A DNA stretch of 64,000 bases from an uncultured Planctomycetaceae bacterium (GCA_963815195.1 CAWFGE010000017.1:32001-96000); one strand, 5' to 3'. Counted from the first letter of the stretch, positions 23,982 through 38,006 are shown. Program-made: numbers and translations. Notes: a model not told the origin generated them from the letters alone.

Positions 23982-24068
23982 CCGATTGATGAATCGGCGG
24001 GGCCAACTTCTGGCCCGCGGATTGGGGGCGGGGCGGCGGATTCCTCAAACCTTGGCAATAGAGTCATG

Positions 24069-24332
24069 AGCCCGAAGCGCATGCGAGGGAATTGATTTGA
24101 AATCCCTCGCTTGCGCTTTGGGCTAATTGAGACAGAAATCCCTCGCTTGCGCTTTTTGAAGATGCGCATTCTCTAAATCGCGAGCGATCGTGCATTGTGA
24201 GCGGTTCGGCGCTAGCCGCCGGCCTTGTCATATCCAAATTTCCGTTGAAAAGGCCGGGGGCTAGCGCCCTTCCGCTCACATTTTGCGGTTTCGTGCAACT
24301 TCAAAACTGGCGCTTCGGGCTAATTGAGACAG
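24069..24332. repeat. Composite REP cluster
   Basis: agcccgaagcgc..gcgaggga/tccctcgcttgcgctttgggct hairpin, a partial tandem copy, and a nested gtgagcgg...ccgctcac doublet (24197-24280). Confidence 0.7.
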
Positions 24333-24430
24333 AGTTTTTTGCGATGAATTGGCAAAAATGCCGGGTTAGCGCTCGATTTCGAACCGCTCATCGACCTTCG
24401 GTCCACATTCTCCCCCAACGACTCCGCGGT

Positions 24431-26138
24431 TTACTTCGCCTGGAACAAGGCTTCTGAAAGGTCGTCTCGTTCTTTATAGGGGCGATATTTGTAGTACCAT
24501 TCGCCCCACTTCTCTTTCGAGCTGCTTCCGCCACTGGGCGACTGCGGCGTCTTTGGCTTTCTGGTCCGCCGAGGCGGGAACCTTCTCGAACGGGGTTTCG
24601 GGAAGATGAAAACCCAACGGTTTGCGGCTGAGCGTGCACAGGGCGTTGCGGGCTTCGACCATCACGTCCACGTTGTTGTCGTCCAAGGCCTCGATGAGCA
24701 ACTTGGCCATTCCCAGATCCTCCGTGCGGCCGAGCGCCCAAATGGCGGTCCGCCGGACTTCCACATTCGGATGCTTCGCGAGCTTGACCAACCGGTCCTT
24801 CTGTTTGATCAACTCCTCGCGGTCCCCCAGTTGCACCTGCTCGACGATGGCCTCCTGCGCGGCGGCGACATCCACCGTTTCCACTTTTTCCAACTCTTGG
24901 AGCAACTCGTCGATCGGGCCCAAATCTTTCTTGCTCTCGACTTTGCCGTCCTTGAGGATCGCCTGGCTGAGGTCGTCGGGCAGTCCGCGTCCGCCAGCGA
25001 GTAGCCCGTTGCCCAACGGATCAAACGGAACGTCGCGGTGCAGGATCTTGGCGGTGGCTTTGGTCAGAAACAGAATCCCGAACGCGGTGGAGGCGATTTC
25101 CCCGGTGGTGGAATTCCACGATCCGTTCTTGGCCTGGCTCGTGACGAGGTACGTCGCCCCTTCGCGGTACCAGTCGTGGTTGGCGATCGTTTGGACGTTC
25201 ATCAAGGCCGCCATCCGCTCGAACGTGTAAAGGTAATACATGTTCCAGCGGCCGGCGGTGATGGTGTACCGGCGGGCGATCCAACCCGCGGCGCGGTTCG
25301 CCGCCGCCGTTAAATTCCCGCTTGTCACGGTGGGGTGATAGTCGTTCGGGTCTTTGACCTTGGTGCCGTCGGGTTTTTCCACGGTGTCCAGATCGACGGA
25401 TTCCAGCACGCCGAATTTCGTGGTGGCGGGTTTTTTGGGTTTCTCGGCAGTTGGGTCCTCGGCGTTGGGATAGAGATGCATTCTCGCCATCAACAGCGAC
25501 CCCACGCCCGCGGCTGTCATCGTGTGGGAGACCGCGGTGTCATCGCCTTGACTTCCAAAGGGGTGATAGGAGTAGCCCCCGTCGCCCGACTGCGTCTTGA
25601 TAAACCAGGCCGCGCCGCGGTCCCAGACCTCGGGCGGGACCTTGATGCCCGACCGCTCGGCCGCCCAGAAGCCGAGCATCGCGTATTGGCATTGGCTCGT
25701 GTCCCCGCCGCGAAACCCGTCCACATAGTCCCAAGACCCGCTGGAGTGCTGGTGCTTGATCAGATACGCCACGATCGCTTCCATTTCCTTGCGGTATTTT
25801 TGCGGGTTGGCGGCTTCGAGGAGCATCATCTCCACGCCCGCGCCGTAAATCCCGTCGGAGCCGGGCTTGTAATTTCCGCCGCCCGCCCGCTTGACAACGT
25901 TGTTCAACACGCCTTGCACCGCGGGGCTGTTCGGCGGATCGCCCGCCTTCAAGAGGGCATACGCCGCCAAACCGCCGTAGCTCGATTCGCTTTCTTGCGC
26001 GACTCGCTGCCGGAGATAGGCCGCGGCGTCCGCCACGGATTTTTTGATCTGGGCACCCGTGACCTGGGCCGACGCCGCTTGGGGAAGGACGCAAACGATG
26101 GCCAATGTGCTCAGAATGAGAAAACGGAAGGTAACCAT
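24431..26138 (-). CDS. Secreted prenyltransferase-repeat + HEAT-repeat protein; apparent frameshift near 24515
   Basis: QHSSGSWDY, GDTSQCQYAMLG, QSGDGGYSY, YYLYTFER, HEAT repeat EVRRTAIWALGR; the C-terminus WGEWYYKYRPYKERDD lies in an alternative frame. Confidence 0.75.
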
Positions 26139-26339
26139 GGTGATCGATCGCTTTGAGAGGAGAAAACACTGTCAAAAAGCTGGATCAGCCGGAACGCGCT
26201 CGCGTCCGATTCGCCCCGCAATAAACCGGGGCTAGCCGCCCTGCGGCTAATTTTTCCAACCTCGTTTTTGTTTTGGCGGAGTATTAGGACGATTTCCAAC
26301 TTCAGTTTATCTCAATCCCAGCCGCCTCGTCAAAGTCGC

Positions 26340-26864
26340 CTACCCGAAGAACGCGTCGGTCAGCCAGTTGATCAACAGCAAGGCGATCAAACAATTCCCG
26401 AACCAGACAGGCCAGCGGGCTTCGGAAATGCCGGTTTTGAGCTCGCGGAGCCGGTAGATGCGATAGGGGATTTGCAGCACGATCGCCAAAGCGAGGATCC
26501 AGCCGATGCGGTGGTAACTGAGCGAAGCTTCCCAATCGCCGCGGGCCAGCGAGAGGATGCTGCGGGTCAATCCGCAGCCGGGGCATTCGACGTTGAACAT
26601 AGCCCGGCTGCCGCACAATTCGGGCAGCGGATAATCTTCCAGCCCCCGAAACGCGACTCGCGTCCCGTCTTGGACCTGCATCAAAAACGCCAGCGCGACC
26701 ACGCTCGCGGAAATCCAGAGCATCGACCCGTGCCGTTTTCGCTGCCAGCGGCGAGTCCGCGCAACGTCGTCCGCATCGTCCAGGATTTCCAGGACTTCCA
26801 GCTCCGCCTCCGCGAGGTGTTCTTCCGCTGGAATGGACGTGGCGATCGAATCGGACATGGTCAT
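26340..26864 (-). CDS. DUF2752 membrane protein
   Basis: C..RAMFNVECPGCGLTRS...GDW..S..YH motif; start overlaps the E2 stop. Confidence 0.8.
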   Translation of the reverse strand: MTMSDSIATSIPAEEHLAEAELEVLEILDDADDVARTRRWQRKRHGSMLWISASVVALAFLMQVQDGTRVAFRGLEDYPLPELCGSRAMFNVECPGCGLTRSILSLARGDWEASLSYHRIGWILALAIVLQIPYRIYRLRELKTGISEARWPVWFGNCLIALLLINWLTDAFFG

Positions 26865-27583
26865 CGGATTTCAAATACCCTCATGCACTTCTTGCAGCGA
26901 ACCCGGCGGCCGCGGACCTCGACTTTGACCGCGTAAACGGCACCGCAACCGGGGCAGGCCGTCTGAATGGTCTCGGGAGCCGGCTGCAACACGATGGGGG
27001 CTTCGTCCTCGAAGGTCGAACTCGCGGCGGGAGCCGGGGATCTTCGGGCCGTCGCCCGCGCGCTCGATGCGGCGGCGGGCGGGCGGCTTACCGCGGCCGA
27101 TTCGCCGGCGCCGGCTTTCTCCTCGTCCACCAGAAGGCTCACGCGGTCGAGCGGCAGTTGATCGCGGTTCTCATCGACCCAGCGGGCGGCTTCCCCGTTG
27201 AGCGGGCTTTTCACGTTGTAGCTTTGATAGGCGAGCATCTCGCCGATGCGGGTCACGATCGACTGCAGCGATTCCCCCGCGCTCCAGTGGTCCCCCACGC
27301 AAATCGCGTGCGGGGCGATGTTCGGATGGAACACCGGCGTCAGCATCCGGCACTGCGGCGGCGTGCGCGGATAATTCCGCGGCAACAGAATCTCCACCGT
27401 GTGATCTTTGATCGGCTCCAATTCCCCGTTGACCGACCGCAAGCTGCGAATGCGATATTGCAACTGATACCGCTCGGGCGGATCGCCTTCCGCCTGCAGC
27501 AACGTGATCCGCGGATGCAGCCGGGCGTATTCCTTCAACTTCTGATAATCGGCATTCAGCCGACGCAATCGCACATTGCTCAT
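26861..27583 (-). CDS. Ubiquitin-conjugating enzyme E2 (UBC fold) with C-terminal Zn ribbon
   Basis: RLRRL..D helix, LPRNYPRTPP, TPVFHPNIAPHAIC (catalytic Cys codon 27299-27301), WS, SPLNGEAA; tail CPGC...GRRVRCKKC. Confidence 0.9.
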   Translation of the reverse strand: MSNVRLRRLNADYQKLKEYARLHPRITLLQAEGDPPERYQLQYRIRSLRSVNGELEPIKDHTVEILLPRNYPRTPPQCRMLTPVFHPNIAPHAICVGDHWSAGESLQSIVTRIGEMLAYQSYNVKSPLNGEAARWVDENRDQLPLDRVSLLVDEEKAGAGESAAVSRPPAAASSARATARRSPAPAASSTFEDEAPIVLQPAPETIQTACPGCGAVYAVKVEVRGRRVRCKKCMRVFEIR

Positions 27584-28845
27584 TTCTTGGGCGTCTCGAT
27601 TTGTTTCTGAGGCAGGGAAAGATTCCGCGGAAGCAATTCCAAGAGCGTGGGCAGGGAAATGGAAAAGCCCAGGCCCTCCGCCACGCGCTTGTCTCCGGTC
27701 AAGGTGTTGATGCCGATCAGTCGGCCTTGTTTATCGTAAAGTCCGCCGCCGCTGTTGCCGGGATTGAGCGCGGCCGTGCTTTGGAGAATCTTATACACGA
27801 ACCGCCCGCGCTGCCGGCGCCGGATTTGCGAAAGCTGCCCGGCCGAATGCGTCCAGCCCAACCCGTGGGGGTTTCCGATGGCGAACACGTCGTCGCCGAT
27901 GTGCGGATGCTGCTCGGCGTCCCAGTGGGCGACGGCGATGTCCTCGGGATCGAGGTGCGTGGAAAGAATCGCCAAATCGACCCCGTGCGGAGCGACCCAT
28001 TCAATTCTCGCGGGCACCGCCATTTGGGTGACGGTTTGAATCGAAATGTCGGACAGCTCCGACAAATTCGCGGCGGCGGTTTTGGTGTCCTCGGAATAAT
28101 CGTGATCGACGACGTGGCGGTTGGTGACGATCCACGCCACGCCGTCCTTGAGCTTCAAAATCACGCCCGAGCCCATGCCCTGCCTGGCGAATCCCGCGTC
28201 GGAGATCACGATCACGTTTGCCCGCATCGACCGGCCGAGATGCTCGGGCAACTCCTCGATCGAGGCCAGGTCCGGGGCGGCAAATTCCTGGAGCGAAACA
28301 AACCCGTGGTTTTGGCCCATGAAGTGATACATTCCAAAGGCCCAGCCGGCCACGTCCGCCATGCCAATCAGAATGGCGAGCACCCCCATCCACAGCCCGC
28401 GGCGGTTGCTGGTCTGGACGACCAGGGCAATGCAGCCGACGACGATGGCGACCATCCCCGTCACCAGCCCGAACAGCGGAATCCCCAAGAGCGCGATCAC
28501 AAACGCCCAGATCGCCGTGCGGTTCCAGCGTTTGTCCGGGGTCCGCAGGTCGCCCGCATCGAATTCGCTGAACGACCGCGGCGGCGGCAGCGGCTCGGCG
28601 GCGGCGAGTTCGTTGCGGGAAATCGTCAATGTCGAACCGGCGGGGGCCTGCGAACTCTTGCCCGTGGAGCATTCGTAAGAACCGCAGCCGCCTTGCAGAT
28701 TCCAGCAGGACTCGTGGTGGATCGTCCCGCATTTCCGGCAGATGGAGGTGGACTCGCCCAACTCCAACTCGCGCCCGCAGGCTCGGCAGTCCGCACCTGC
28801 TTCCCGGTCACCGGCCGCGACAATTATGGGATTCAAATTTTGCAC
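27580..28845 (-). CDS. Prokaryotic RING-like domain + transmembrane segments + trypsin-like serine protease
   Basis: C-x2-C-x12-C-x2-C-x4-H-x2-C-x6-C-x4-C at 28669-28788; hydrophobic segments; triad motifs TNRHV, DLAIL, NPGNSGG; GTG start after a gagg RBS. Confidence 0.85.
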   Translation of the reverse strand: MQNLNPIIVAAGDREAGADCRACGRELELGESTSICRKCGTIHHESCWNLQGGCGSYECSTGKSSQAPAGSTLTISRNELAAAEPLPPPRSFSEFDAGDLRTPDKRWNRTAIWAFVIALLGIPLFGLVTGMVAIVVGCIALVVQTSNRRGLWMGVLAILIGMADVAGWAFGMYHFMGQNHGFVSLQEFAAPDLASIEELPEHLGRSMRANVIVISDAGFARQGMGSGVILKLKDGVAWIVTNRHVVDHDYSEDTKTAAANLSELSDISIQTVTQMAVPARIEWVAPHGVDLAILSTHLDPEDIAVAHWDAEQHPHIGDDVFAIGNPHGLGWTHSAGQLSQIRRRQRGRFVYKILQSTAALNPGNSGGGLYDKQGRLIGINTLTGDKRVAEGLGFSISLPTLLELLPRNLSLPQKQIETPKK

Positions 28846-28911
28846 GACATTCCTCAAGGGAAAAGTTTCCGTTGGGGCCTCGATCCTTGGAACGTGTTTT
28901 AAATTGCCATT

Positions 28912-28993
28912 GTGAGCGGCTAGCCGCTCGCCGCCGGTCTTGATTTTGTACGTATCCTTCATCGAAACCGGAGGCTAGCGGCTTGCCGCTCAC
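28912..28993. repeat. REP doublet inside the ubiquitin-like cluster
   Basis: gtgagcggctagccgctcgccgccggt ... accggaggctagcggcttgccgctcac; overlaps the stop codon of the upstream RING gene. Confidence 0.7.
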
Positions 28994-29694
28994 TTCCCAA
29001 ATACGATGAAAAACACCATGAGTGCGCTGTAGATTCCCGACAGCCCGATCGACACCCATGCCATGATAGCGTAAAGCGGGCTGCATTTGGCTAGTATTTT
29101 TCGGCGGGGCAGGACGTAAATCAAGCCGATCAGGAGAATCAACGGAGCCGCGCAACCGATGAGAGACGCCACAAATAGCGCCGTCACCGACTGTTGCGTC
29201 TTTTCGACGTCCGTTTTGGACTTGGCCTGTTTTCGGAGATCCTTCGTGGTCATCGGATCGACCGACTCGAATTCCTCGTCGCAATACCGGCATTTGAGGG
29301 CGATCGCTTTGATCTCTTCCCCGCACGCCGGGCAGCGTTTGGTGTCGCCCCAGGCCGCGAGCGGCGTTTGGTGGGAGTCTTCGGACTTCTCGACCGCCGG
29401 GGCCTGCTCGCAGCCGTACGTCCCGCAGCCGCCGATCTCTGACCAGCATTCCCGGTGGTGCACCTGATCGCAGCTCGGGCAGGTCACGCAGGCTTCGTCG
29501 GGCGAGATTTCGCTTTGGCAAATGGGGCACGCGGTTTGATGGCCGGCGGAGACCGGCGTGAGCGAGAGCACGCGGGCATCCACCGTCAGCGCCAAACCCG
29601 TCTTGCACCGCGGGCAGCGGAACGTGCGGTTGGTGCGGTCGGCCGGAACCCGAACTTTGGCTCCGCAGTCACAGCTAATGATTTGGGTCGACAT
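28990..29694 (-). CDS. Zn ribbon + prokaryotic RING-like + Zn ribbon + C-terminal TM protein (candidate E3)
   Basis: CDC...CPRC; RING-like motif at 29410-29529 with the same spacing as the neighbouring gene; CPACGEEIKAIALKCRYC; two hydrophobic segments. Confidence 0.8.
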   Translation of the reverse strand: MSTQIISCDCGAKVRVPADRTNRTFRCPRCKTGLALTVDARVLSLTPVSAGHQTACPICQSEISPDEACVTCPSCDQVHHRECWSEIGGCGTYGCEQAPAVEKSEDSHQTPLAAWGDTKRCPACGEEIKAIALKCRYCDEEFESVDPMTTKDLRKQAKSKTDVEKTQQSVTALFVASLIGCAAPLILLIGLIYVLPRRKILAKCSPLYAIMAWVSIGLSGIYSALMVFFIVFGK

Positions 29695-29854
29695 GGAGGT
29701 GTTTCAAGGACTTCGCTTCGTTGGTCAATGGCGGTTTTGTCGAGCGGGTGAAGCACAACAGACCCCAATCGCAAAAGGGGGCGGCGCTTCTCCGCCGACG
29801 GAATGTCAAATACAAATCCTACTCTTTTCGATCGCAGGTTTCTTCCCACCCGCA

Positions 29855-30394
29855 TTAGTGCCGGCCCGCCGACTCGATAATGACGCGGATGACTCCCCCC
29901 AGGATGCTGAATAGGAGCGACACGCCGAACATTTTGGCCCCCTTGGGTTTGCCTTGGACCATCCACACGATCCCCAAGATGCAGCCGATCCCGGAGCAGA
30001 GAATCGCCACGACCCAATCGCCGCCGGTCATATCCGCGTCTTCGTCGGCATGGCGGGACCCCGACCGCGACTTCTTGGACCGGCGTTTTAACCCCGGATC
30101 GAAAATCTCCCCGCAATACCGGCACTTGGCGGCTTTGCGCATGATCATTTCGCCGCACGCCGGGCAGGGCTTGCGGTCGCCCTCCTCCGCCGCCGATCCC
30201 GCATTGGGGTCCAGCCCGCCAAAATCGAAATCCCCCCCGCCGCCGACTTCCTCGGCCTCGAAGACATCGTCGGCCGCGGCGGCGGGGATCTGCACCCGCT
30301 CTCCGCAATGGGGGCACTTGGCCATCTTTCCCGCCATCGAGTCTTTCGTTCGCAAGACCGCGCCGCAGGATTCGCAGTTGACAGTAATCGACAC
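29855..30394 (-). CDS. Double Zn-ribbon membrane protein, paralog A
   Basis: CESC...AGKMAKCPHC; CPACGEMIMRKAAKCRYC; two C-terminal TM segments. Confidence 0.8.
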   Translation of the reverse strand: MSITVNCESCGAVLRTKDSMAGKMAKCPHCGERVQIPAAAADDVFEAEEVGGGGDFDFGGLDPNAGSAAEEGDRKPCPACGEMIMRKAAKCRYCGEIFDPGLKRRSKKSRSGSRHADEDADMTGGDWVVAILCSGIGCILGIVWMVQGKPKGAKMFGVSLLFSILGGVIRVIIESAGRH

Positions 30395-30456
30395 AGGAGG
30401 CCTTTCTCTGACAAGCGGAAATTCAGTTTCTCATGGTCATAAAAACTTCGAGCGGC

Positions 30457-31014
30457 TTAACCTGCTCCTTCGAGGATGGCTCCAATGACGAACCCGATGG
30501 CCCGCCAAATGATTCCCGAAAGAATCGAGAACCCAATCATTTTCGAGCCTTTGGGTTTGCCTTGAATCACATAGACCAGCCCGACGATGCACGCGATCCC
30601 CCCGCAAAAAATCACCAGCAGCCATTCCAATGTGTCCAGATCCTCATCTTCATCTCCGTAACGGGAGCGCGAGCGTTTTCGCGAACTTTTCTTGCGGCGT
30701 TTGAGGGCGGGGTCGAAAATCTCCCCGCAGTACCGGCACTTGGCGGCTTTCCGCATGATCATTTCGCCGCACGCCCGGCAGGGCTTGCGCTCGTCCCGCG
30801 GGACGGTGGCGCCGGCATTGGGGTCGAATCCGCCGAAGTCGAAATCCTCGGCTCCGTCCATCTCTTCCGCTTCGTAAACCTCCTCTTTTTTCGGTTTGGG
30901 AACCGGAATCCGCACGCGCTCCCCGCAGTGAGGGCACTTCGCCGTTTTGCCCGCCATCGACGTCTTCGTTCGCAGAACCGCCTGGCAGGATTTGCACCTT
31001 ACCCGAATAGACAC
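30457..31014 (-). CDS. Double Zn-ribbon membrane protein, paralog B
   Basis: CKSC...AGKTAKCPHC; CRACGEMIMRKAAKCRYC; VIQGKPKG between TMs; GTG start inferred from alignment to paralog A. Confidence 0.8.
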   Translation of the reverse strand: MSIRVRCKSCQAVLRTKTSMAGKTAKCPHCGERVRIPVPKPKKEEVYEAEEMDGAEDFDFGGFDPNAGATVPRDERKPCRACGEMIMRKAAKCRYCGEIFDPALKRRKKSSRKRSRSRYGDEDEDLDTLEWLLVIFCGGIACIVGLVYVIQGKPKGSKMIGFSILSGIIWRAIGFVIGAILEGAG

Positions 31015-31088
31015 ACTCAACCTTCCTCTCGCACGTTGATCGGCGGGATAATCCACCTCTTCAAAAGGATTTCAGGATGATGAGTTTT

Positions 31089-31255
31089 AGGGGAAAATTC
31101 GAAATCCGAATCTCGAAATCCGAAACAAATTCCAATCACCGAAATTCCCATCTCCAAACCCTGAACCGGTTGTGTTTTATGACCCAACGTTGTTTGCAAC
31201 ATTTGGATTTTGAATTTGTTTCGGATTTCGGATTTCGCGCTTCGGATTTCCCCCT
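31089..31255. repeat. AT-rich inverted repeat of 7-mer units (cgaaatc / gatttcg)
   Basis: aaattcgaaatccgaatctcgaaatccgaaacaaattc ... gaatttgtttcggatttcggatttcgcgcttcggatttc. Confidence 0.75.
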
Positions 31256-31256
31256 T

Positions 31257-32354
31257 TTAGGACGTGGTTTCTTTGACGGAGAATTCCAAAACCGTTTTGC
31301 CCAGCACCACCTGGTCGCCGGGCTGGAGTATGTGCCGGGTGATGGGAATCCCGTTGACGTAGGTCCCGTCGGGGGTGTTGCAGTCTTCGATTTCGAAGCG
31401 GCCGCCGCGGTTGGTGACGATCGCGTGCCGGGGTTCGATGGCATCATCTTTGAACAGATACACGTCGGCCTTGGGCGAACTGCCCAGGACGGTGGTGTCT
31501 TTGAACAAGATGAACTGCTTGCCCGCCAGGGGGCCTTTCCGCATGAGCAGCCAGGCGGTCTTGGTCCAGCCTTCGACGAGGCCCACGAACAACCCGACGA
31601 AACAGCCGATCGTCGCAAACCCGACGCCCCGGCTGTAAGTCGCCTGCCCATCGGCGGTGACGAGGACCATGCTGATCGGGTCGAACAGAAACCCGCCCAA
31701 GAGTCCGCCCAACACCGCTCCGACGAGCCCGTTGATAATGACCTTCTTCTCGCGGAGGGCGATGCCCTGGCCGATTCCCGAGGGAATCGATGCCACGCTC
31801 CACGCGGCCGCCCGGCCCATCATCATGATCAACAGCGCGAGTCCCGTGGGCATGGCGTTCGGCTGCGGATTCTTCCAGAAACTCACCGCCAATGTGATCA
31901 TCAAACTGAAGATGATCCCGGTGGGGATGAGCGCGATCAGTCCGCCGAGGAAGCCCACGGCCAAACCGACCATGCCGGATTTGACTGCCCGGAGCGGATT
32001 CCGGCAAATGATGCCTTCCGCTGCGCCCAGGAACAATCCCACCGATCCCGCCACCACAGGGAACATAAACAACGCGGCCAGATCCACATCGTTCCCGATG
32101 CGGTTGTCGTCGAAGAACGGCTCTAAAATCAGCCAGCCAAGGATCCCGCCCACCATCGCGGCGATCGACAAGTAAAACCAGTTGGCGTAGATCACGCGGA
32201 TCAGCCAGGGCTGATCGCTCAGCGGGCCGACGTCTCGCTGGAGGTACGCCTGAAGCTCGACATACTCATCCACCGCGGGAGCGTGCAGGTCGCGTTGGCT
32301 GATGCGAATGGGATCGGACACGGAGCAGTCCTCGAACAGATTCTTAATGAGCAA
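31257..32354 (-). CDS. Multi-pass membrane protein with C-terminal FHA domain
   Basis: About 7 Gly-rich TM segments, then GPLAGKQF.L....VLGS....D...HA......FEIEDC....GTYVNG....L.PGD.V.LG; start may lie ~30 nt downstream. Confidence 0.85.
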   Translation of the reverse strand: MLIKNLFEDCSVSDPIRISQRDLHAPAVDEYVELQAYLQRDVGPLSDQPWLIRVIYANWFYLSIAAMVGGILGWLILEPFFDDNRIGNDVDLAALFMFPVVAGSVGLFLGAAEGIICRNPLRAVKSGMVGLAVGFLGGLIALIPTGIIFSLMITLAVSFWKNPQPNAMPTGLALLIMMMGRAAAWSVASIPSGIGQGIALREKKVIINGLVGAVLGGLLGGFLFDPISMVLVTADGQATYSRGVGFATIGCFVGLFVGLVEGWTKTAWLLMRKGPLAGKQFILFKDTTVLGSSPKADVYLFKDDAIEPRHAIVTNRGGRFEIEDCNTPDGTYVNGIPITRHILQPGDQVVLGKTVLEFSVKETTS

Positions 32355-32366
32355 GAGAGATTGGGG

Positions 32367-33586
32367 TTATTTTTCCGCCTGGGCCGGAGCTGGGGATTCC
32401 GGCGGCTGTTTTGGCGGGTTCTCGGTTTCTTTCGCCGGGGGCTTGGAACTCTCGTCAACGGGCTTTTTGGTTGTTTTGGGAGCGGCCGCGTTTTCCGGCT
32501 TCTTGGTCGAAGCACCATTGGCGGACTTCGAGGAACCGGATTTCCTTTTCAATTTCATCCCCTGCGCCTCGGCCTCCTTTTCCGCGATCAACTGCTCCAC
32601 GGCGTTTTGCTCGACGGCGGAAAGTCCATAGACTTCCCTCATGTATCCGATCGTATTGGCGCTCGCTTTGAGATTCTCCGCGATCAGTCGGCGGCGTTTC
32701 AGCGCGGCCGCCCGCTCTTCGTCGGAAAGTTCGGCCGACGGAGCCGGCAGCTTTTGGAACTCGCTTTCGATGAGATGCAAGTGCTGTTCGATGGCGGACA
32801 TCTTCTCTTCGAAGCCCGGCTTCAGCAATTTCGTCACCCCGTAGCGGGCGACCGCTCCCTGCTGAAGCAGGATGGATTCCGATTGGCTCCGCCACCCGGC
32901 CAGGAGGTAGCCCAGCAACAACATGCAGATGCACGCCAGGATCGTGGTCACGAACGGCAAAATGCCCGGGTCCCCGGGAGGAGCCCCGGGGCGGGATTCG
33001 CCGGTCGCTTGACCCGGCGTGTCCCGGGGCGAAGCGGTCGAACGCAGCGTGGCGTCCACCGTGCGAACGCGGTCGCCGATCCAATAATGGGCGATGGGCG
33101 TGGGCTTTCCCGCGCGCAGGTGAAGACGCCTTCCAAATCCCGCACCGGATCGACCACATAGGCCACCTGCCCGGGGCCGGAGAAGAAATTCTCGTGGATG
33201 AACACGTCCCGGTCCGAGAGGAAGATCCCAAAGTCGGGGTGCGAATGATACCAGCCGATGATCCGCAGATCGGTATACTTGCTGTCCATCTCCTTGTTGA
33301 TCTGCGACCAGGATTCGTGGGTGAACGTGACCTCGGCGAATTTGCTCGTGGCGCTCTCGCAGCGGATATTTTCGGTGACGAGGGCAAAGGGGCCGTGCTC
33401 GTCTTTCTCCCACTTCCCCACCAGGACGCCGCAAATCTCCACGGAGACATCGGCCTTGGCGTGCTCCTGGATGCTCTTATGCACCGCTTCGGTCATGTGG
33501 AACCGAAAATCCTCTTTCGGCTTGACCGGAAATTTGCCCTCGGACAATTTTTCCTTTTTGAGGTCGCGAATGTCCACGCCGCTCAT
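32367..33586 (-). CDS. JAB/MPN+ metallo-isopeptidase with TM helix and helical/Lys-Pro-rich tail; apparent 1-nt frameshift near 33117
   Basis: EICGVLVG and GWYHSHPDFGIFLSDRD (HxH-x7-S-x2-D); one added G gives ...VFTWRAGK... continuing into a TM segment (ILPFVTTILACICMLLLGYLLAG); ATG overlaps the E1 stop. Confidence 0.85.
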
Positions 33587-34782
33587 TTCGTTTCTCGCCC
33601 TTCCGCCAAAGCCCCCAAGACCAGGGAACGATCTCCCGCAAATTCGTAGTAATGCTGCTCCATGCCCGCCCGGCCGCCCAGGATGTCCCAGGCCGGCACA
33701 CCCAGCTCTGCGAGCGTCTTGTCCAAAAGGGCCGAGCCGGGGCCCAACGTATGATACAGATTCGGCGTCCGCAGATTTTCGCATTTCGGACATTTTGCCG
33801 CCGACTCGGTGACTTTTCCCAAGGACGCCAGCATCGGCGTGGTTTCCTTGCACGCGGGGCAGGTCAAGGATTCCAGAAGTTCCTGATTGAACTCGATCAC
33901 CGCGCTGGGCCCCAAATCGCTTTCTATCCGCTTGAGGAAGTCGCCCGCCGTCGTGTTTCCGATTTGATTCGGCAATTCGGTGATGGGTTCGTAGGCATCG
34001 TGGGCCGGGCAGTCTTCCAGCTTCGTGTAGTTGACGAGATAGCTTTGATGCCAATTGCCGTCGAACACAAACCCTTGCCCGGAAAGCGTGTCCAGCCCGT
34101 GCAGCATCTTGACGGCTTCGTGGGCCTGGATGCCGGCGATGATCGAGGAAGTCGTCGGCGTGGTGGGGACTTTGCCCTGCTCCATTTCCTCGCGGGACAA
34201 GAGGCGCAGCTCCGGCGGGCTTCGAGCATTTTCCAATCGACTTCGCTCATCGTGCATTCGTAGCAGGGCCCGACCGCGGGATCGAACACGCGGGCCACGC
34301 CGTCGAGCCGTTCGATCGCCCCGTCGATCCAGGGCTTGCCCACGCGGGCCGCGGCCTGATTGATCGCCACGCGGGCTTCGCGGTTGTCGAGTCCGCCGAG
34401 AATAACATCCGCCCAGCGGTACACGCCCAGGCCCAGATCGAACACGATATTCCCGTGAAACGCCTGCGTGCGGATGTCGGGGTAGATGTCCTTCGCCCGC
34501 TCGGCGGCGACCTCGGCTTTCGGGCGGCCGCAATCGGCGGCCCGGTACAACACCGACCGCGACAGGTTCGAGTTCTCGATGAGATCGAGGTCGGCCACAA
34601 ACAGATTCCCGACCCCCAACAGCGCCAGGTTTTTGATCAGCTGCGTTTCCGAGCGCACCCGCCCCGATCACCAGCGCGTTCGCCGCCGCCAATCGCTCCT
34701 GGTCCCACCAGCTGATGAGTTCAAACCGTGCAAACCGCCCTTCCTGGGGTTTTAAATCGGTCAACCGCAATACGTCATTCAA
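33583..34782 (-). CDS. ThiF/E1 ubiquitin-activating-like enzyme; two compensating apparent frameshifts (~34644, ~34204)
   Basis: RFARF, VIGAGALGN, DLDLIENSNLSRS, KAE, GLDNREAR, PCYEC, candidate catalytic RRSC, PTTPTTSSIIAGIQ..EAVK, C-terminal CPAC/CPKC; ggagga RBS + TTG start. Confidence 0.85.
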   Translation of the reverse strand: MNDVLRLTDLKPQEGRFARFELISWWDQERLAAANALVIGAGALGNAADQKPGAVGGRESVCGRPRSHRELEPVAVGVVPGRRLRPPESRGRRRAGEGHLPRHPHAGVSREYRVRSGPGRVPLGGCYSRRTRQPRSPRGDQSGRGPRGQALDRRGDRTARRRGPRVRSRGRALLRMHDERSRLENARSPPELRLLSREEMEQGKVPTTPTTSSIIAGIQAHEAVKMLHGLDTLSGQGFVFDGNWHQSYLVNYTKLEDCPAHDAYEPITELPNQIGNTTAGDFLKRIESDLGPSAVIEFNQELLESLTCPACKETTPMLASLGKVTESAAKCPKCENLRTPNLYHTLGPGSALLDKTLAELGVPAWDILGGRAGMEQHYYEFAGDRSLVLGALAEGRETK

Positions 34783-34846
34783 GAATCTGACTCCTCCGGC
34801 ATTGGGGGGGGAATTGTTCCTCCGCAGCATCGCTTTCGGGGAAGCG

Positions 34847-35116
34847 CTACCCGGCTGTGATTTCCGGTTGGAGCCGCAGAACGTCGCCGTCCCGAACATC
34901 CGCCGATGCCAGCGTTTCCGAGTCCAAGAGCTGCCGACCCGAGCCTTTGTGATGGAATTTGTAACTCATGGCCTGCCCGTCCGGGCTGTGGCGGGGCAGG
35001 TTCATGCGTTCGATCAACACGGCAATCAGGCGGTTGACCTCGGCGTCGGCCGGGACTTCGACCATTTGGCGCTTGTTGCCGGTGGCGTCCCAGACTTCGA
35101 TTTTCAGCTCGCTCAT
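34847..35116 (-). CDS. Ubiquitin-like beta-grasp protein (EsaB/YukD-like), 89 aa, ending in -TAG (Thr-Ala-Gly)
   Basis: Alternating strand pattern KIEVWD/QMVEV, helix, LLDSETLASADVRDGDVLRL (compare ubiquitin LEDGRTLSDYNI...LHL), C-terminal Gly; first gene of the E1/JAB/E2 cluster. Confidence 0.85.
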   Translation of the reverse strand: MSELKIEVWDATGNKRQMVEVPADAEVNRLIAVLIERMNLPRHSPDGQAMSYKFHHKGSGRQLLDSETLASADVRDGDVLRLQPEITAG

Positions 35117-35565
35117 AAGATGGATTCGCTCAAACAGGTTTTCGTCGCAGTATGATCTTGGGATTGGAGTGTTTTTGAGGATTGGCTGAACGTTCGGAAA
35201 CACCGATTCTTTGATTGAAAGAATCCCCGCTTTCCGGCAGGAAAAGGGAACCAAAGTGTGCTTCAAATTACCAAATCATACGATACCCCCACCGTGCAAG
35301 GTTGTCTAGGATGTATCTTCACGAAATTCAAGCCGGCAAGCGTCGGAACGCCCGTGGTCTCTCAAATCACGAGGCGGACGGTTGGCCCGCTTGCCGGGGC
35401 ACCGGGTCAAGGGATAGAATCACGTGAACCTTCTGGGGCAAACCTTGTCGTGATGTTGGTCGAACCATAACCCGCGATCATCCTGCGCCCTTATTCCGAG
35501 AACCGACTTCCTTCCTCCACGGCAGTTTTCCTTCCTCGAACCCGTCGAAAGCCGACATAGACCAC

Positions 35566-36987
35566 ATGACCGACAAACAGAATCTTTTCAACAAAGTCTG
35601 GGATTTGCATGCCGTGCGCCAACTGCCTTCCGGGCAGACGCAGCTTTTCATCGGCCGGCATCTGATTCACGAAGTCACCAGCCCGCAAGCCTTCGAGATG
35701 CTCCGCGACCGGGGCCTCAAGGTGATGTATCCCGAGCGGACCCTGGCCACGGTCGATCATATCATTCCCACCGACAACCAGGCCCGGCCGTTTGCCGACA
35801 CGCTCGCCGAGGAAATGATGTCGGCCGTCGAAAAGAACTGCCGGGAATTCGGGATCGAACTTCTCAATCTGAACGACAACCGCCAGGGCATCGTGCACGT
35901 GGTCGGGCCGGAGTTGGGATTGACGCAGCCCGGCATCACGCTGGTCTGCGGCGACAGCCACACCAGCACGCACGGGGCCTTCGGCAACATCTCCCTGGGC
36001 ATCGGCACCAGCCAGGTCGCGTATGTGCTCGCCACGCAAACCTTGGCGTTGGAACGGCCCCGCGTCCGGCGGATTGAAGTCAATGGCGAACTCTCGCCCG
36101 GCGTGTATGCCAAGGATGTGACCTTGCACATCATTCGCATCCTGGGCGTCAAAGGCGGCATCGGTTATGCCTACGAATACGCGGGCGACGTGTTCGACCG
36201 GATGACGATGGAAGAACGCATGACCGTGTGCAACATGAGCATCGAAGGCGGGGCCCGCTGCGGCTACGTCAATCCCGACCAGACGACCGTGGATTATCTC
36301 CGCGGCCGGCCCCTGGTTCCTCAGGGCGAGGAATTTGAACGAGCGGCCGCGTGGTGGCTGAGCCTGGCTTCGGGGCCCGCTGCCGAGTTTGACGATGTGG
36401 TCACCATCGACGCGGCCGACATCGAGCCGACGGTCACCTGGGGCATCAATCCCGGCCAGTCGGTGGGCGTGCGCGAATCGATTCCCTCGCCGGGCAGTTT
36501 TCCGGCCGAGGAACAAGCCGGGGCGGCGGAGGCCTTGGAGTTTATGGATCTCCAGCCCAACCAGCCGGTCCAGGGCATCAAAATCGACGTGGCGTTTATT
36601 GGTTCGTGCACGAACTCGCGATTGTCGGATCTTCGCGAGGCGGCGGAAGTCGTCAAAGGCCGGCACGTGGCCGAGGGTGTCAGGACTCTCGTCGTGCCCG
36701 GTTCGCAGGACGTTCGCCGGCAAGCCGAGGCCGAGGGCTTGGATCAAATTTTCGAAGACGCGGGCTTCGATTGGCGCGGGGCGGGCTGTTCGATGTGTCT
36801 GGCGATGAATCCCGACAAACTCCAGGGCCGGGAAATCTGTGCCTCCTCGAGCAACCGCAACTTCAAAGGCCGCCAGGGCAGCCCCACCGGTCGGACGCTG
36901 TTGATGAGTCCCGCGATGGTCGCCGCCGCCGCCGTCACCGGCCATGTGACCGACGTCAGAGAACTCCTCCAACCCGCCGGCGTCTAG
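35566..36987 (+). CDS. leuC: 3-isopropylmalate dehydratase large subunit
   Basis: [49 protein letters not shown]. Confidence 0.97.
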
Positions 36988-37098
36988 GCGAGCGGGGGGC
37001 GTGAGCCCCCTGGTTTTGTTCGAGTCGATCCGTTCGGCTCGCGATTCAATCCTTCAATCATTCGACGTGACCAGGGGGCTCACGCCCCCCGCTCGCCT
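36986..37098. repeat. REP doublet between leuC and leuD
   Basis: aggcgagcggggggcgtgagccccctggt / accagggggctcacgccccccgctcgcct inverted pair; a related half copy lies at ~42068. Confidence 0.8.
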
Positions 37099-37128
37099 TG
37101 AGACAAACTTCAACGGACAATTCTCCAC

Positions 37129-37722
37129 ATGGCAAAAATCGATCAAATCACCGGCACCGGCCTTCCTTTGTTGCTCGACGACATCGACACCGACCGCATC
37201 ATCCCGGCGAGGTACTTGCGCTGCGTGACTTTTGAAGGCATCGGCGAACACGCCTTCGAGGATGACCGCCAGCAAAATCCCAAGCATGCCTTTAACGATC
37301 CCAGGTTCGCGAACGCGTCGGTTCTGGTCGCGGGGCGGAATTTTGGGTGCGGCTCTTCGCGGGAACATGCTCCGCAAGCCCTCATGCGGTGGGGCATCCA
37401 GGCGGTTGTTGCGGAATCGTTTGCCGAGATCTTCTTCGGCAACTGCACCGCGCTGGGCATTCCCGCGGTGACCGCGAAGCGCGCGGATTTGGAAAAAATC
37501 GCCGCCGCCATCGGGGCCGACCCGTCGTTGACCTTGATGGTTGATCTTTTGGAAATGCAACTCCACGCGGGGGAAGAGCAATATCCCATCCAAATGCCCG
37601 AAAGCGCCAAGAAAGCCCTCACCACGGGGCAGTACGATTTCCTCGCGCAACTCTTGGAGGGTGAACCGCAAATCCGCGAGACCGCGAAGACGCTGCCTTA
37701 TCTCAATCATTTCCAAACATAA
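37129..37722 (+). CDS. leuD: 3-isopropylmalate dehydratase small subunit
   Basis: [38 protein letters not shown]. Confidence 0.97.
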
Positions 37723-37743
37723 TTGGCCGCCTTTCGCCACAAC

Positions 37744-37845
37744 GTGTGCCACTGGCTTTGCCAGTGTTTTTTGCGATGGGCATCAGGACATCGATCAGAC
37801 TTCGGAGCCAACCGGTGAATCGCACTGGCGGAGCCAGTGGCACAC
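37744..37845. repeat. REP doublet (gtgtgccactgg family)
   Basis: gtgtgccactggctttgccagtg ... cactggcggagccagtggcacac. Confidence 0.75.
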
Positions 37846-38006
37846 CCGCGGTTCGCGGTTTCGCAAAGGATGTCGGACAAACAAAAGGTCTGGACTTTTC
37901 GAACGAGGGACTTTTATACTGGATTGAGTTCGGGACGGTTGCTTTTCTGAGCCATCGCCTGTGCGCTCGGGAGTCATTCAATCATTCGATGAGTCGGACG
38001 GTTGCC

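Follow-up and report, generated by a model that had tools for sequence, protein, structure and literature searches.

We analysed a 64,000-nucleotide stretch (the window) of contig C17 from the 8.87-Mb, 94.6% complete genome of an uncultured Planctomycetaceae bacterium (GCA_963815195.1 CAWFGE010000017.1:32001-96000). Ten genes on its minus strand, spanning positions 26340-35116, are predicted to form a complete, membrane-anchored operon for the conjugation of a ubiquitin-like protein (Ubl), and are a new example of an already predicted type: the bacterial Ubl/E1/E2/RING/JAB operons reportedly predicted by Burroughs, Iyer and Aravind in 2011. The gene order is Ubl, E1, JAB, a membrane protein with a forkhead-associated (FHA) domain (TM-FHA), two Zn-ribbon membrane proteins, a RING protein, a RING-trypsin protein, E2 and DUF2752. 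An earlier reading of the window from its sequence alone (the sequence-only reading) had placed ten co-oriented genes at these positions, and all were found, with Pfam identities that agree. Its 4-nt stop/start overlaps at E1/JAB, RING-protease/E2 and E2/DUF2752 were likewise recovered (the remaining gaps are 12-200 nt), as were the Ubl, JAB, E2 and RING motifs and, by hydropathy, membrane segments in seven of the ten genes (all but Ubl, E1 and E2). The title that it gave to the cluster left out a trypsin domain and spoke of an FHA which lacks the phosphothreonine-binding residues.

The prediction of a Ubl-E1-E2-JAB kit for conjugation at the membrane is well supported, because the catalytic residues are invariant, selection is purifying and the gene order is conserved. 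The Ubl (34847..35116, 89 residues) is a single YukD-like beta-grasp domain (Pfam YukD 3e-12, above cut-off; best Atlas matches YukD clusters at 0.97), whose best full-length sequence matches in the PDB were weak (6fj7/6fnn/2mqj, E 0.02-0.04). It ends in a free terminal glycine (PEITAG; ...ITAG-stop). The P, E, A and G of this tail and Lys15 are present in 80/80 aligned rows. Twenty-one of 81 Ubls end at the glycine as here, 51 carry a tail of 1-25 residues and nine a longer one; the JAB would have to trim the 51. Lys15 (35072-35074), which lies in the DATGNK loop and is invariant in the 80 Ubls, is a possible chain site, at a position which we take to be near Lys11 of ubiquitin.

The E1 activating enzyme (33583..34782, about 399 residues; ThiF 4e-38) probably starts at a TTG behind GGAGGAG. 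Its ATP loop, CYEC zinc site and catalytic cysteine are found in 83/83 intact relatives, and an intact relative matches UBA1, UBA7, UBA3 and UBA2 ahead of ThiF/MoeB. The JAB/MPN metallopeptidase (32367..33586; JAB 1e-12), with Rpn11 as its best PDB match (2e-9), has the HxH-x7-S-x2-D site, intact in 90/92 JAB matches across loci. The domain is joined to one membrane helix and a helical C-terminal part, in one open reading frame (ORF) in 28/29 relatives; this part probably lies outside the membrane. The E2 (26861..27583; UBC fold, UQ_con 9e-13) ends in an MJ0042-type Zn ribbon and its profile matches eukaryotic E2s at 3e-11. Its HPN is followed by the cysteine six residues on, one fewer than the spacing of seven in eukaryotic E2s; relatives keep HPN in 70/70 and the cysteine in 68/70. 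All catalytic residues for Ubl adenylation, for the E1 and E2 thioesters and for JAB cleavage are kept.

These residues and matches of the Ubl tail, E1, E2 and JAB are consistent with real conjugation rather than sulfur transfer. A ThiS/MoaD-like sulfur-carrier pathway in place of protein tagging would suit the ThiF family of the E1 and its ThiF/MoeB NCBIfam matches, all of them far under cut-off. However, an E2 accompanies 45/47 loci, the E1 is nearer to UBA1/UBA3/UBA2 than to ThiF, and no sulfur-metabolism or rhodanese domain was found in the scanned operon ORFs, so that we regard such a pathway as extremely improbable.

Relatives were collected by an E1 scan of species genomes, which gave 206 relatives; 80 loci were kept together with ten further regions, one duplicate being counted once. 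A quick E1 tree was made from 51 selected rows, the window excluded. The relatives are mostly from Planctomycetota. The synteny expected by the sequence-only reading was borne out in that the gene set is conserved across several phyla and many loci of Planctomycetia repeat the order found in the window, with other classes and phyla shuffling the same parts. Among the 47 loci whose downstream flank measures 7 kb or more, JAB, TM-FHA and RING each occur in 46, E2 in 45, Ubl in 44, trypsin in 33 and DUF2752 in 19. In a sample of 401 genomes of the phylum, Ubl was present in 34, TM-FHA in 19 and RING in 42; RING occurred in 32/34 genomes with Ubl against 10/367 others, and all 11 genomes with at least five RINGs have Ubl. 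TM-FHA was found in 17/17 genomes with the close Ubl type and in 0/17 genomes with the distant type. The first count is in part circular, the Ubl profile having been built mostly on TM-FHA operons, and related genomes are not independent; this and the zero are points against the explanation favoured below. The genome studied here has one Ubl, one JAB and one TM-FHA of these types, and its only RINGs are the two in the operon.

Other arrangements were also observed. A second operon type, Ubl-E2-E1-JAB, is without TM-FHA (L096-L100). Bacillota versions (L062-L090) fuse E2 to TM-FHA and have two JABs; in L073 (15470-16471) a JAB is fused to LysM. A CBASS-type phospholipase effector (L063:3243-4259) lies about 5 kb upstream of a Bacillota operon. 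Near-identical operons occur in L087 and L090, whose records carry the labels Phascolarctobacterium and Escherichia coli; this is the result of recent transfer or of a mis-binned contig. In Phycisphaerae versions an FHA that retains its phosphothreonine residues is fused to the RING (L039, L042, L048, L052, L057, L060, L064, L065, L068, L071, L078), a layout which we take to be that of RNF8/CHFR and through which Ser/Thr kinases might be connected with the cascade. An E2 on its own was seen in a complete genome in which neither E1 nor Ubl was found (L095, G008:C1:2983873-2984538), and L121 (G322) has a solitary TM-FHA with no other operon gene beside it.

The assembly splits the E1 into three pieces, through an added base near 34643 and a lost one near 34203, and the JAB into two, through a base lost near 33117. 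Contigs from four public runs were placed on 24000-38000, at a depth of only 2-3.6. A contig of run X1, 558 nt long and with zero substitutions, shows neither E1 indel, having no extra base at 34643 and no gap at 34203; the window itself may derive from the sample of this run. A contig of run X2, from a second study, is also without the extra base. As a control, the genome was searched with 418 ORFs from the flanks of relatives, of which 32 matched at 50% or more; six of these 32 genes contained eight frame changes over 33 kb (0.24/kb), and the probability of at least three in the operon is then 0.31. Moreover, the ratio of non-synonymous to synonymous substitution (dN/dS) against a same-genus genome was 0.02-0.19 in all nine pieces tested, with dS near saturation, and was lowest in the out-of-frame middle of the E1. 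This same-genus comparison showed no further stops or decay in the operon beyond the three shifts.

From these comparisons the three frameshifts are probably assembly errors and the locus alive, because a near-identical contig has neither of the E1 shifts and the genome-wide rate of shifts is 0.24/kb. Two results speak against this. The expectation that reads would clear the locus was borne out for the E1 only: no correction of the JAB shift at 33117 was found among the listed contig indels, where the depth is 0.67. Secondly, the E1 of the same-genus genome is itself broken within a few bases of 34203, with three shifts in total. Real frameshifts in a locus that is dead in this genome would account for three shifts within two adjacent key genes, for the recurrence of three shifts in the same-genus genome, one at nearly the same position, and would gain from the shallowness of the contigs and the possible origin of the best run. 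Against such a dead locus stand the otherwise identical 558-nt contig and the second-study contig, the unsurprising number of shifts and the want of other stops or decay, and we consider it very improbable. Programmed frameshifting was rejected, because 83/87 loci hold the E1 in a single ORF; the four exceptions comprise the window itself, a broken relative and cuts at contig ends. Two of four indels lie near GCGC, against a background of 6%, a motif bias too thin for use.

The two RING proteins are the candidate E3s. The first (28990..29694) consists of a Zn ribbon, a Prok-RING_1 finger, a second Zn ribbon and a membrane anchor; the second (27580..28962) joins a Prok-RING_1 finger to a DUF4190-like membrane anchor and an HtrA-like trypsin protease. 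Prok-RING_1 matches them at 8e-10 and 2e-8 respectively (39.0 and 34.3 bits, cut-off 29.1). Both fingers are C4HC3, with the eight ligands invariant in 98 rows. A model of the finger (predicted local distance difference test, pLDDT, 80) aligned to RING rows first, with Z 4.9 and a root-mean-square deviation (rmsd) of 1.4 over 42 residues to RNF165. The hydrophobic residue of the E2-binding loop 1 is kept in 73/97 RING rows, being Ile in 28990-29694 and Ala in the protease fusion. According to the consulted part of its description, an archaeal E3 needs this residue together with a helix Trp and a linchpin Arg (PMC5654768).

From their context, the RINGs are predicted as likely E3s. Several results go against this assignment. 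The helix Trp is found in 0/97 rows and the linchpin Arg/Lys in 15/97, with another Trp directly after the sixth ligand in 95/97; the best Z is under 5, and sequence and Foldseek matches mix RING with PHD and C1; and the loop-1 Phe position of the E2, which we assigned after UbcH5, is Arg in 66/70 relatives. E3 activity is only inferred, because the usual Trp and linchpin Arg are missing. Thus, of the full E1-E2-E3-deubiquitinase cascade that had been proposed at the membrane, the Ubl-E1-E2-JAB part stands by residues, selection and gene order, whilst the E3 step is likely with two of three hallmarks missing. Should the RINGs indeed act as E3s, they would contact the E2 through a non-canonical interface.

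The cascade might instead need no E3, like that of Bil; the C4HC3 fingers would then be zinc modules of PHD or C1 type, serving to bind partners or lipids. The missing Trp and linchpin, the ligand order and the best sequence matches, which are C1 and PHD domains, would all suit such modules, and Foldseek could not separate PHD from RING. However, the structural alignment puts RING and U-box first (the first PHD row has Z 3.5 against 4.9), and the RING co-occurs tightly with Ubl and expands only where Ubl is present. We therefore judge an E3-less cascade rather unlikely and retain the RINGs as likely E3s.

This expansion is most pronounced in G121 (90% complete, 6% contaminated; L107-L119), where 25 Prok-RING_1 matches over cut-off lie on about 20 contigs. 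The genome has one Ubl and one E2, with no RING beside its Ubl-E2-JAB-E1 cluster. Of 13 RING ORFs looked at, 10 carry membrane segments and match no second Pfam family above cut-off. G077, G102 and G138 hold at least 15 RING candidates each and one E2 each; G262 was grouped with these four genomes. The expansion looks like a eukaryote-style E3 pyramid.

The TM-FHA protein (31257..32354; FHA 6e-13) was modelled with a pLDDT of 89 as six long helices and an FHA fold, which aligns to GarA with Z 19.3 and an rmsd of 1.1 over 97 residues. In FHA domains the residues of the GR, SxxH and NG motifs bind phosphothreonine. The alignment to GarA shows that the GR, SRRH and NG motifs are replaced here, and that an extra Lys gives an LFKD motif. 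Among such pseudo-FHA domains the Arg occurs in 0/64 and the Ser in 6/64, with the F and D of LFKD in 64/64 and the K in 61/64, whereas the other FHAs of the loci have both Arg and Ser in 12/12. From this pattern, the core FHA appears to be conserved for something other than phosphothreonine binding. By analogy, it may be a Ubl reader, because in the portion of the cryo-EM study consulted the FHA domains of YukB grip YukD (PMC12637312) and the Ubl of this operon is YukD-like; the E2 is suggested as another partner by the E2-TM-FHA fusion. The six-helix part had no Pfam match and only Atlas leads under 0.9, in fold searches that barely probed it as FHA matches filled the lists.

The protease part of the RING-trypsin protein matches Trypsin_2 at 3e-22; its DUF4190 match is weak, DegP/DegS-like matches are under cut-off, and Pfam gave no PDZ domain. 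The trypsin His and Ser motifs occur together in 37/43 trypsin matches across loci. Judging from basic loops and hydropathy, the protease domain is probably periplasmic; the true start may lie downstream of the annotated one. In relatives the RING anchors vary between DUF4190-like, DUF805 and DUF2628.

Taken together, we favour, at somewhat better than even odds, a reversible ubiquitin-style tagging switch at the inner face of the cytoplasmic membrane, with the tag serving as a non-degradative envelope signal. In such a switch the E1 would very probably charge the Ubl and hand it to the E2, and the membrane-anchored RINGs would, with fair probability, recruit the charged E2 and help it to pass the Ubl to lysines on membrane proteins. 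The anchored JAB would strip the tag and, in relatives, also trim the tails of pro-Ubls. More tentatively, the pseudo-FHA membrane protein might bind Ubl or E2 as a reader or scaffold. It is similarly conjectural that the outward trypsin and JAB tail sense envelope damage or attack, for which the tag would be a non-degradative signal. An envelope role is favoured because of the outward HtrA-like protease, the JAB tail and LysM, and signalling or sensing at the envelope is the best fit among the three roles put forward by the sequence-only reading (quality control, transmembrane signalling and antiviral defence). Against the switch it must be counted that the membrane topology of all operon proteins is a prediction from hydropathy.

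A Bil-like anti-phage defence, in which the cascade stops infection by tagging a phage protein (for example when DNA enters or virions assemble at the membrane), would be in keeping with a patchy and mobile distribution (Ubl in 34/401 genomes). In one genus 3/7 genomes carry the operon, and two complete genomes do so between unrelated flanks; the G017 copy is split. Near-identical E1s occur in loci labelled as different phyla, one of them perhaps mis-binned, and the consulted parts of the literature treat Bil and type II CBASS as defence systems and predict the same of uncharacterised operons (bioRxiv 2023.09.26.559546). However, the defence-island context that an antiviral role would suggest was not seen. 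The scan covered 115 of 137 chosen flanking ORFs with PADLOC 2023, which may contain no Bil model, and five matched; Pfam identifies two of these as an ABC ATPase and an NHL-repeat protein, and another, the CBASS phospholipase, is the one clear effector. The result therefore bears chiefly on CBASS and on the genomic context. The window's neighbours are ordinary genes, among them what we presume from the translation to be leuCD-like ones, and at 1e-8 Ubl and E2 match no PADLOC model, E1 and JAB only weakly. Defence is thus unlikely as the main role, but it is the chief rival of the envelope switch and is not exclusive of it, as phage attack could be the trigger of the switch.

Tagging could alternatively serve quality control resembling endoplasmic-reticulum-associated degradation (ERAD), with damaged membrane proteins tagged and degraded and the trypsin cutting their outer part. 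Membrane RINGs, an HtrA-like protease in 33/47 loci and an invariant Ubl lysine that could build chains would fit. Degradation is argued against, because none of five genomes has more than one proteasome-family gene (probably HslV), and none an alpha/beta pair. Moreover, the Pup-ligase family occurs in only two of the five, no AAA ATPase was found among the scanned operon ORFs, and more than 90% of the sampled genomes of the phylum are without the Ubl. The ERAD-like role put forward earlier consequently finds little support, and we regard it as quite improbable. A Pup-ligase family gene was seen in two pieces in the present genome (G000:C1:54335-55964) and was not found in G302, G415 or G017.

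In the sections of the literature consulted, operons with Ubl, E1, E2, RING and JAB genes were predicted in 2011 in Planctomycetes, Actinobacteria and Acidobacteria and are described as sporadic and uncharacterised (PMC4197634, PMC3417536), a status repeated in the consulted parts of PMC7159879, PMC11601596, PMC11601603, PMC11354881 and bioRxiv 2023.09.26.559546. The present operon has the same five components, with both RINGs above the Prok-RING_1 cut-off, and that prediction may already include the genes for TM-FHA, trypsin, Zn ribbons and DUF2752. No experimental study of the RING-containing type was found, in a search outside which most subscription papers lay, in agreement with the earlier statement that such operons are predicted but functionally unstudied. 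Those parts of the literature also agree that CBASS and Bil are described without a RING E3.

BilABCD, Bub and type II CBASS Cap2/Cap3 share with this operon bacterial Ubl conjugation by E1, E2 and JAB, but as described in the sources consulted have no RING, whereas two are found here; the tandem adenylation domains of BilD, the oxyesters of Bub and the E1-E2 fusion of Cap2 are further differences. The Ub/E1/E2/srfp/Rpn11 operon of Caldiarchaeum subterraneum likewise has a full E1-E2-RING-JAMM set and, as far as the consulted part of its description goes, pro-Ubl trimming as expected for many relatives here (PMC5654768). Its structures gave weak Ubl and clear JAB sequence matches. Unlike it, the present operon has the single-glycine PEITAG end and C4HC3 fingers without the Trp and Arg on which the archaeal E3 depends, and it encodes seven membrane proteins as well as a protease and a pseudo-FHA. 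The type VIIb YukD-YukB (EsaB-EssC) module also combines a YukD-family Ubl with FHA domains on a membrane protein, in the sections seen (PMC12637312). There YukD is not conjugated, according to the part consulted of PMC1779556, whereas E1, E2 and JAB are present here, and the operon yielded neither an FtsK ATPase nor a WXG100 gene. The points added by the present analysis are the core FHA without the phosphothreonine-binding Arg, the RING without Trp and linchpin, and the RING expansion with a single E2.

The remaining genes are two double Zn-ribbon membrane proteins and a DUF2752 membrane protein (26340..26864; DUF2752 1e-15), the latter an accessory gene of the subtype. The first Zn-ribbon protein (30457..31056) is a local duplicate of the neighbouring gene (29855..30394; Zn_ribbon_3 6e-9, DZR 3e-7), with 62% identity over 185 columns; most relatives are single-copy. 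The second has a basic loop flanked by two hydrophobic segments. Between two genes, and outside the system, lies a palindromic genome-wide repeat (31075..31256) with 39 genomic matches of at least 80 nt, which folds as a single hairpin (z -6.55); Rfam gave no match in 24000-38000, the repeat included. A promoter scan returned five weak sites against 2.1 expected, one of them at 35308, upstream of the Ubl, and terminators were at chance level. No RNA data set was listed as containing the stretch, which has no bearing on its expression. The GC (guanine-cytosine) content of the operon is that of the rest of the window. Beyond the operon, more one-base indels relative to the public-run contigs were seen at 24393-24862 and 26236. 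A gene at 24474-26138 (prenyltransferase-like, with HEAT repeats) ends within the former stretch and may be mis-assembled.

As an extension that we hold to be unlikely as a whole, these genes may form a transmembrane ubiquitin system in which non-canonical RING writers, an anchored JAB eraser and a pseudo-FHA reader, in which Ubl binding has taken the place of phosphothreonine binding, handle a mark that answers to a periplasmic protease, possibly as Lys15 chains on membrane proteins, and which in some planctomycetes would comprise one Ubl, one E2 and at least 25 RINGs. If this were true, a Ubl-reading FHA and a genome with one E2 and many RINGs would bear on the growth of eukaryotic ubiquitin networks. 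Intact copies in complete genomes (L023, G302, G415) are better material for the bench than this frameshifted assembly, and the operon type is an obvious test of E3-directed ubiquitin-style tagging in bacteria, and of what such a tag does without a proteasome.

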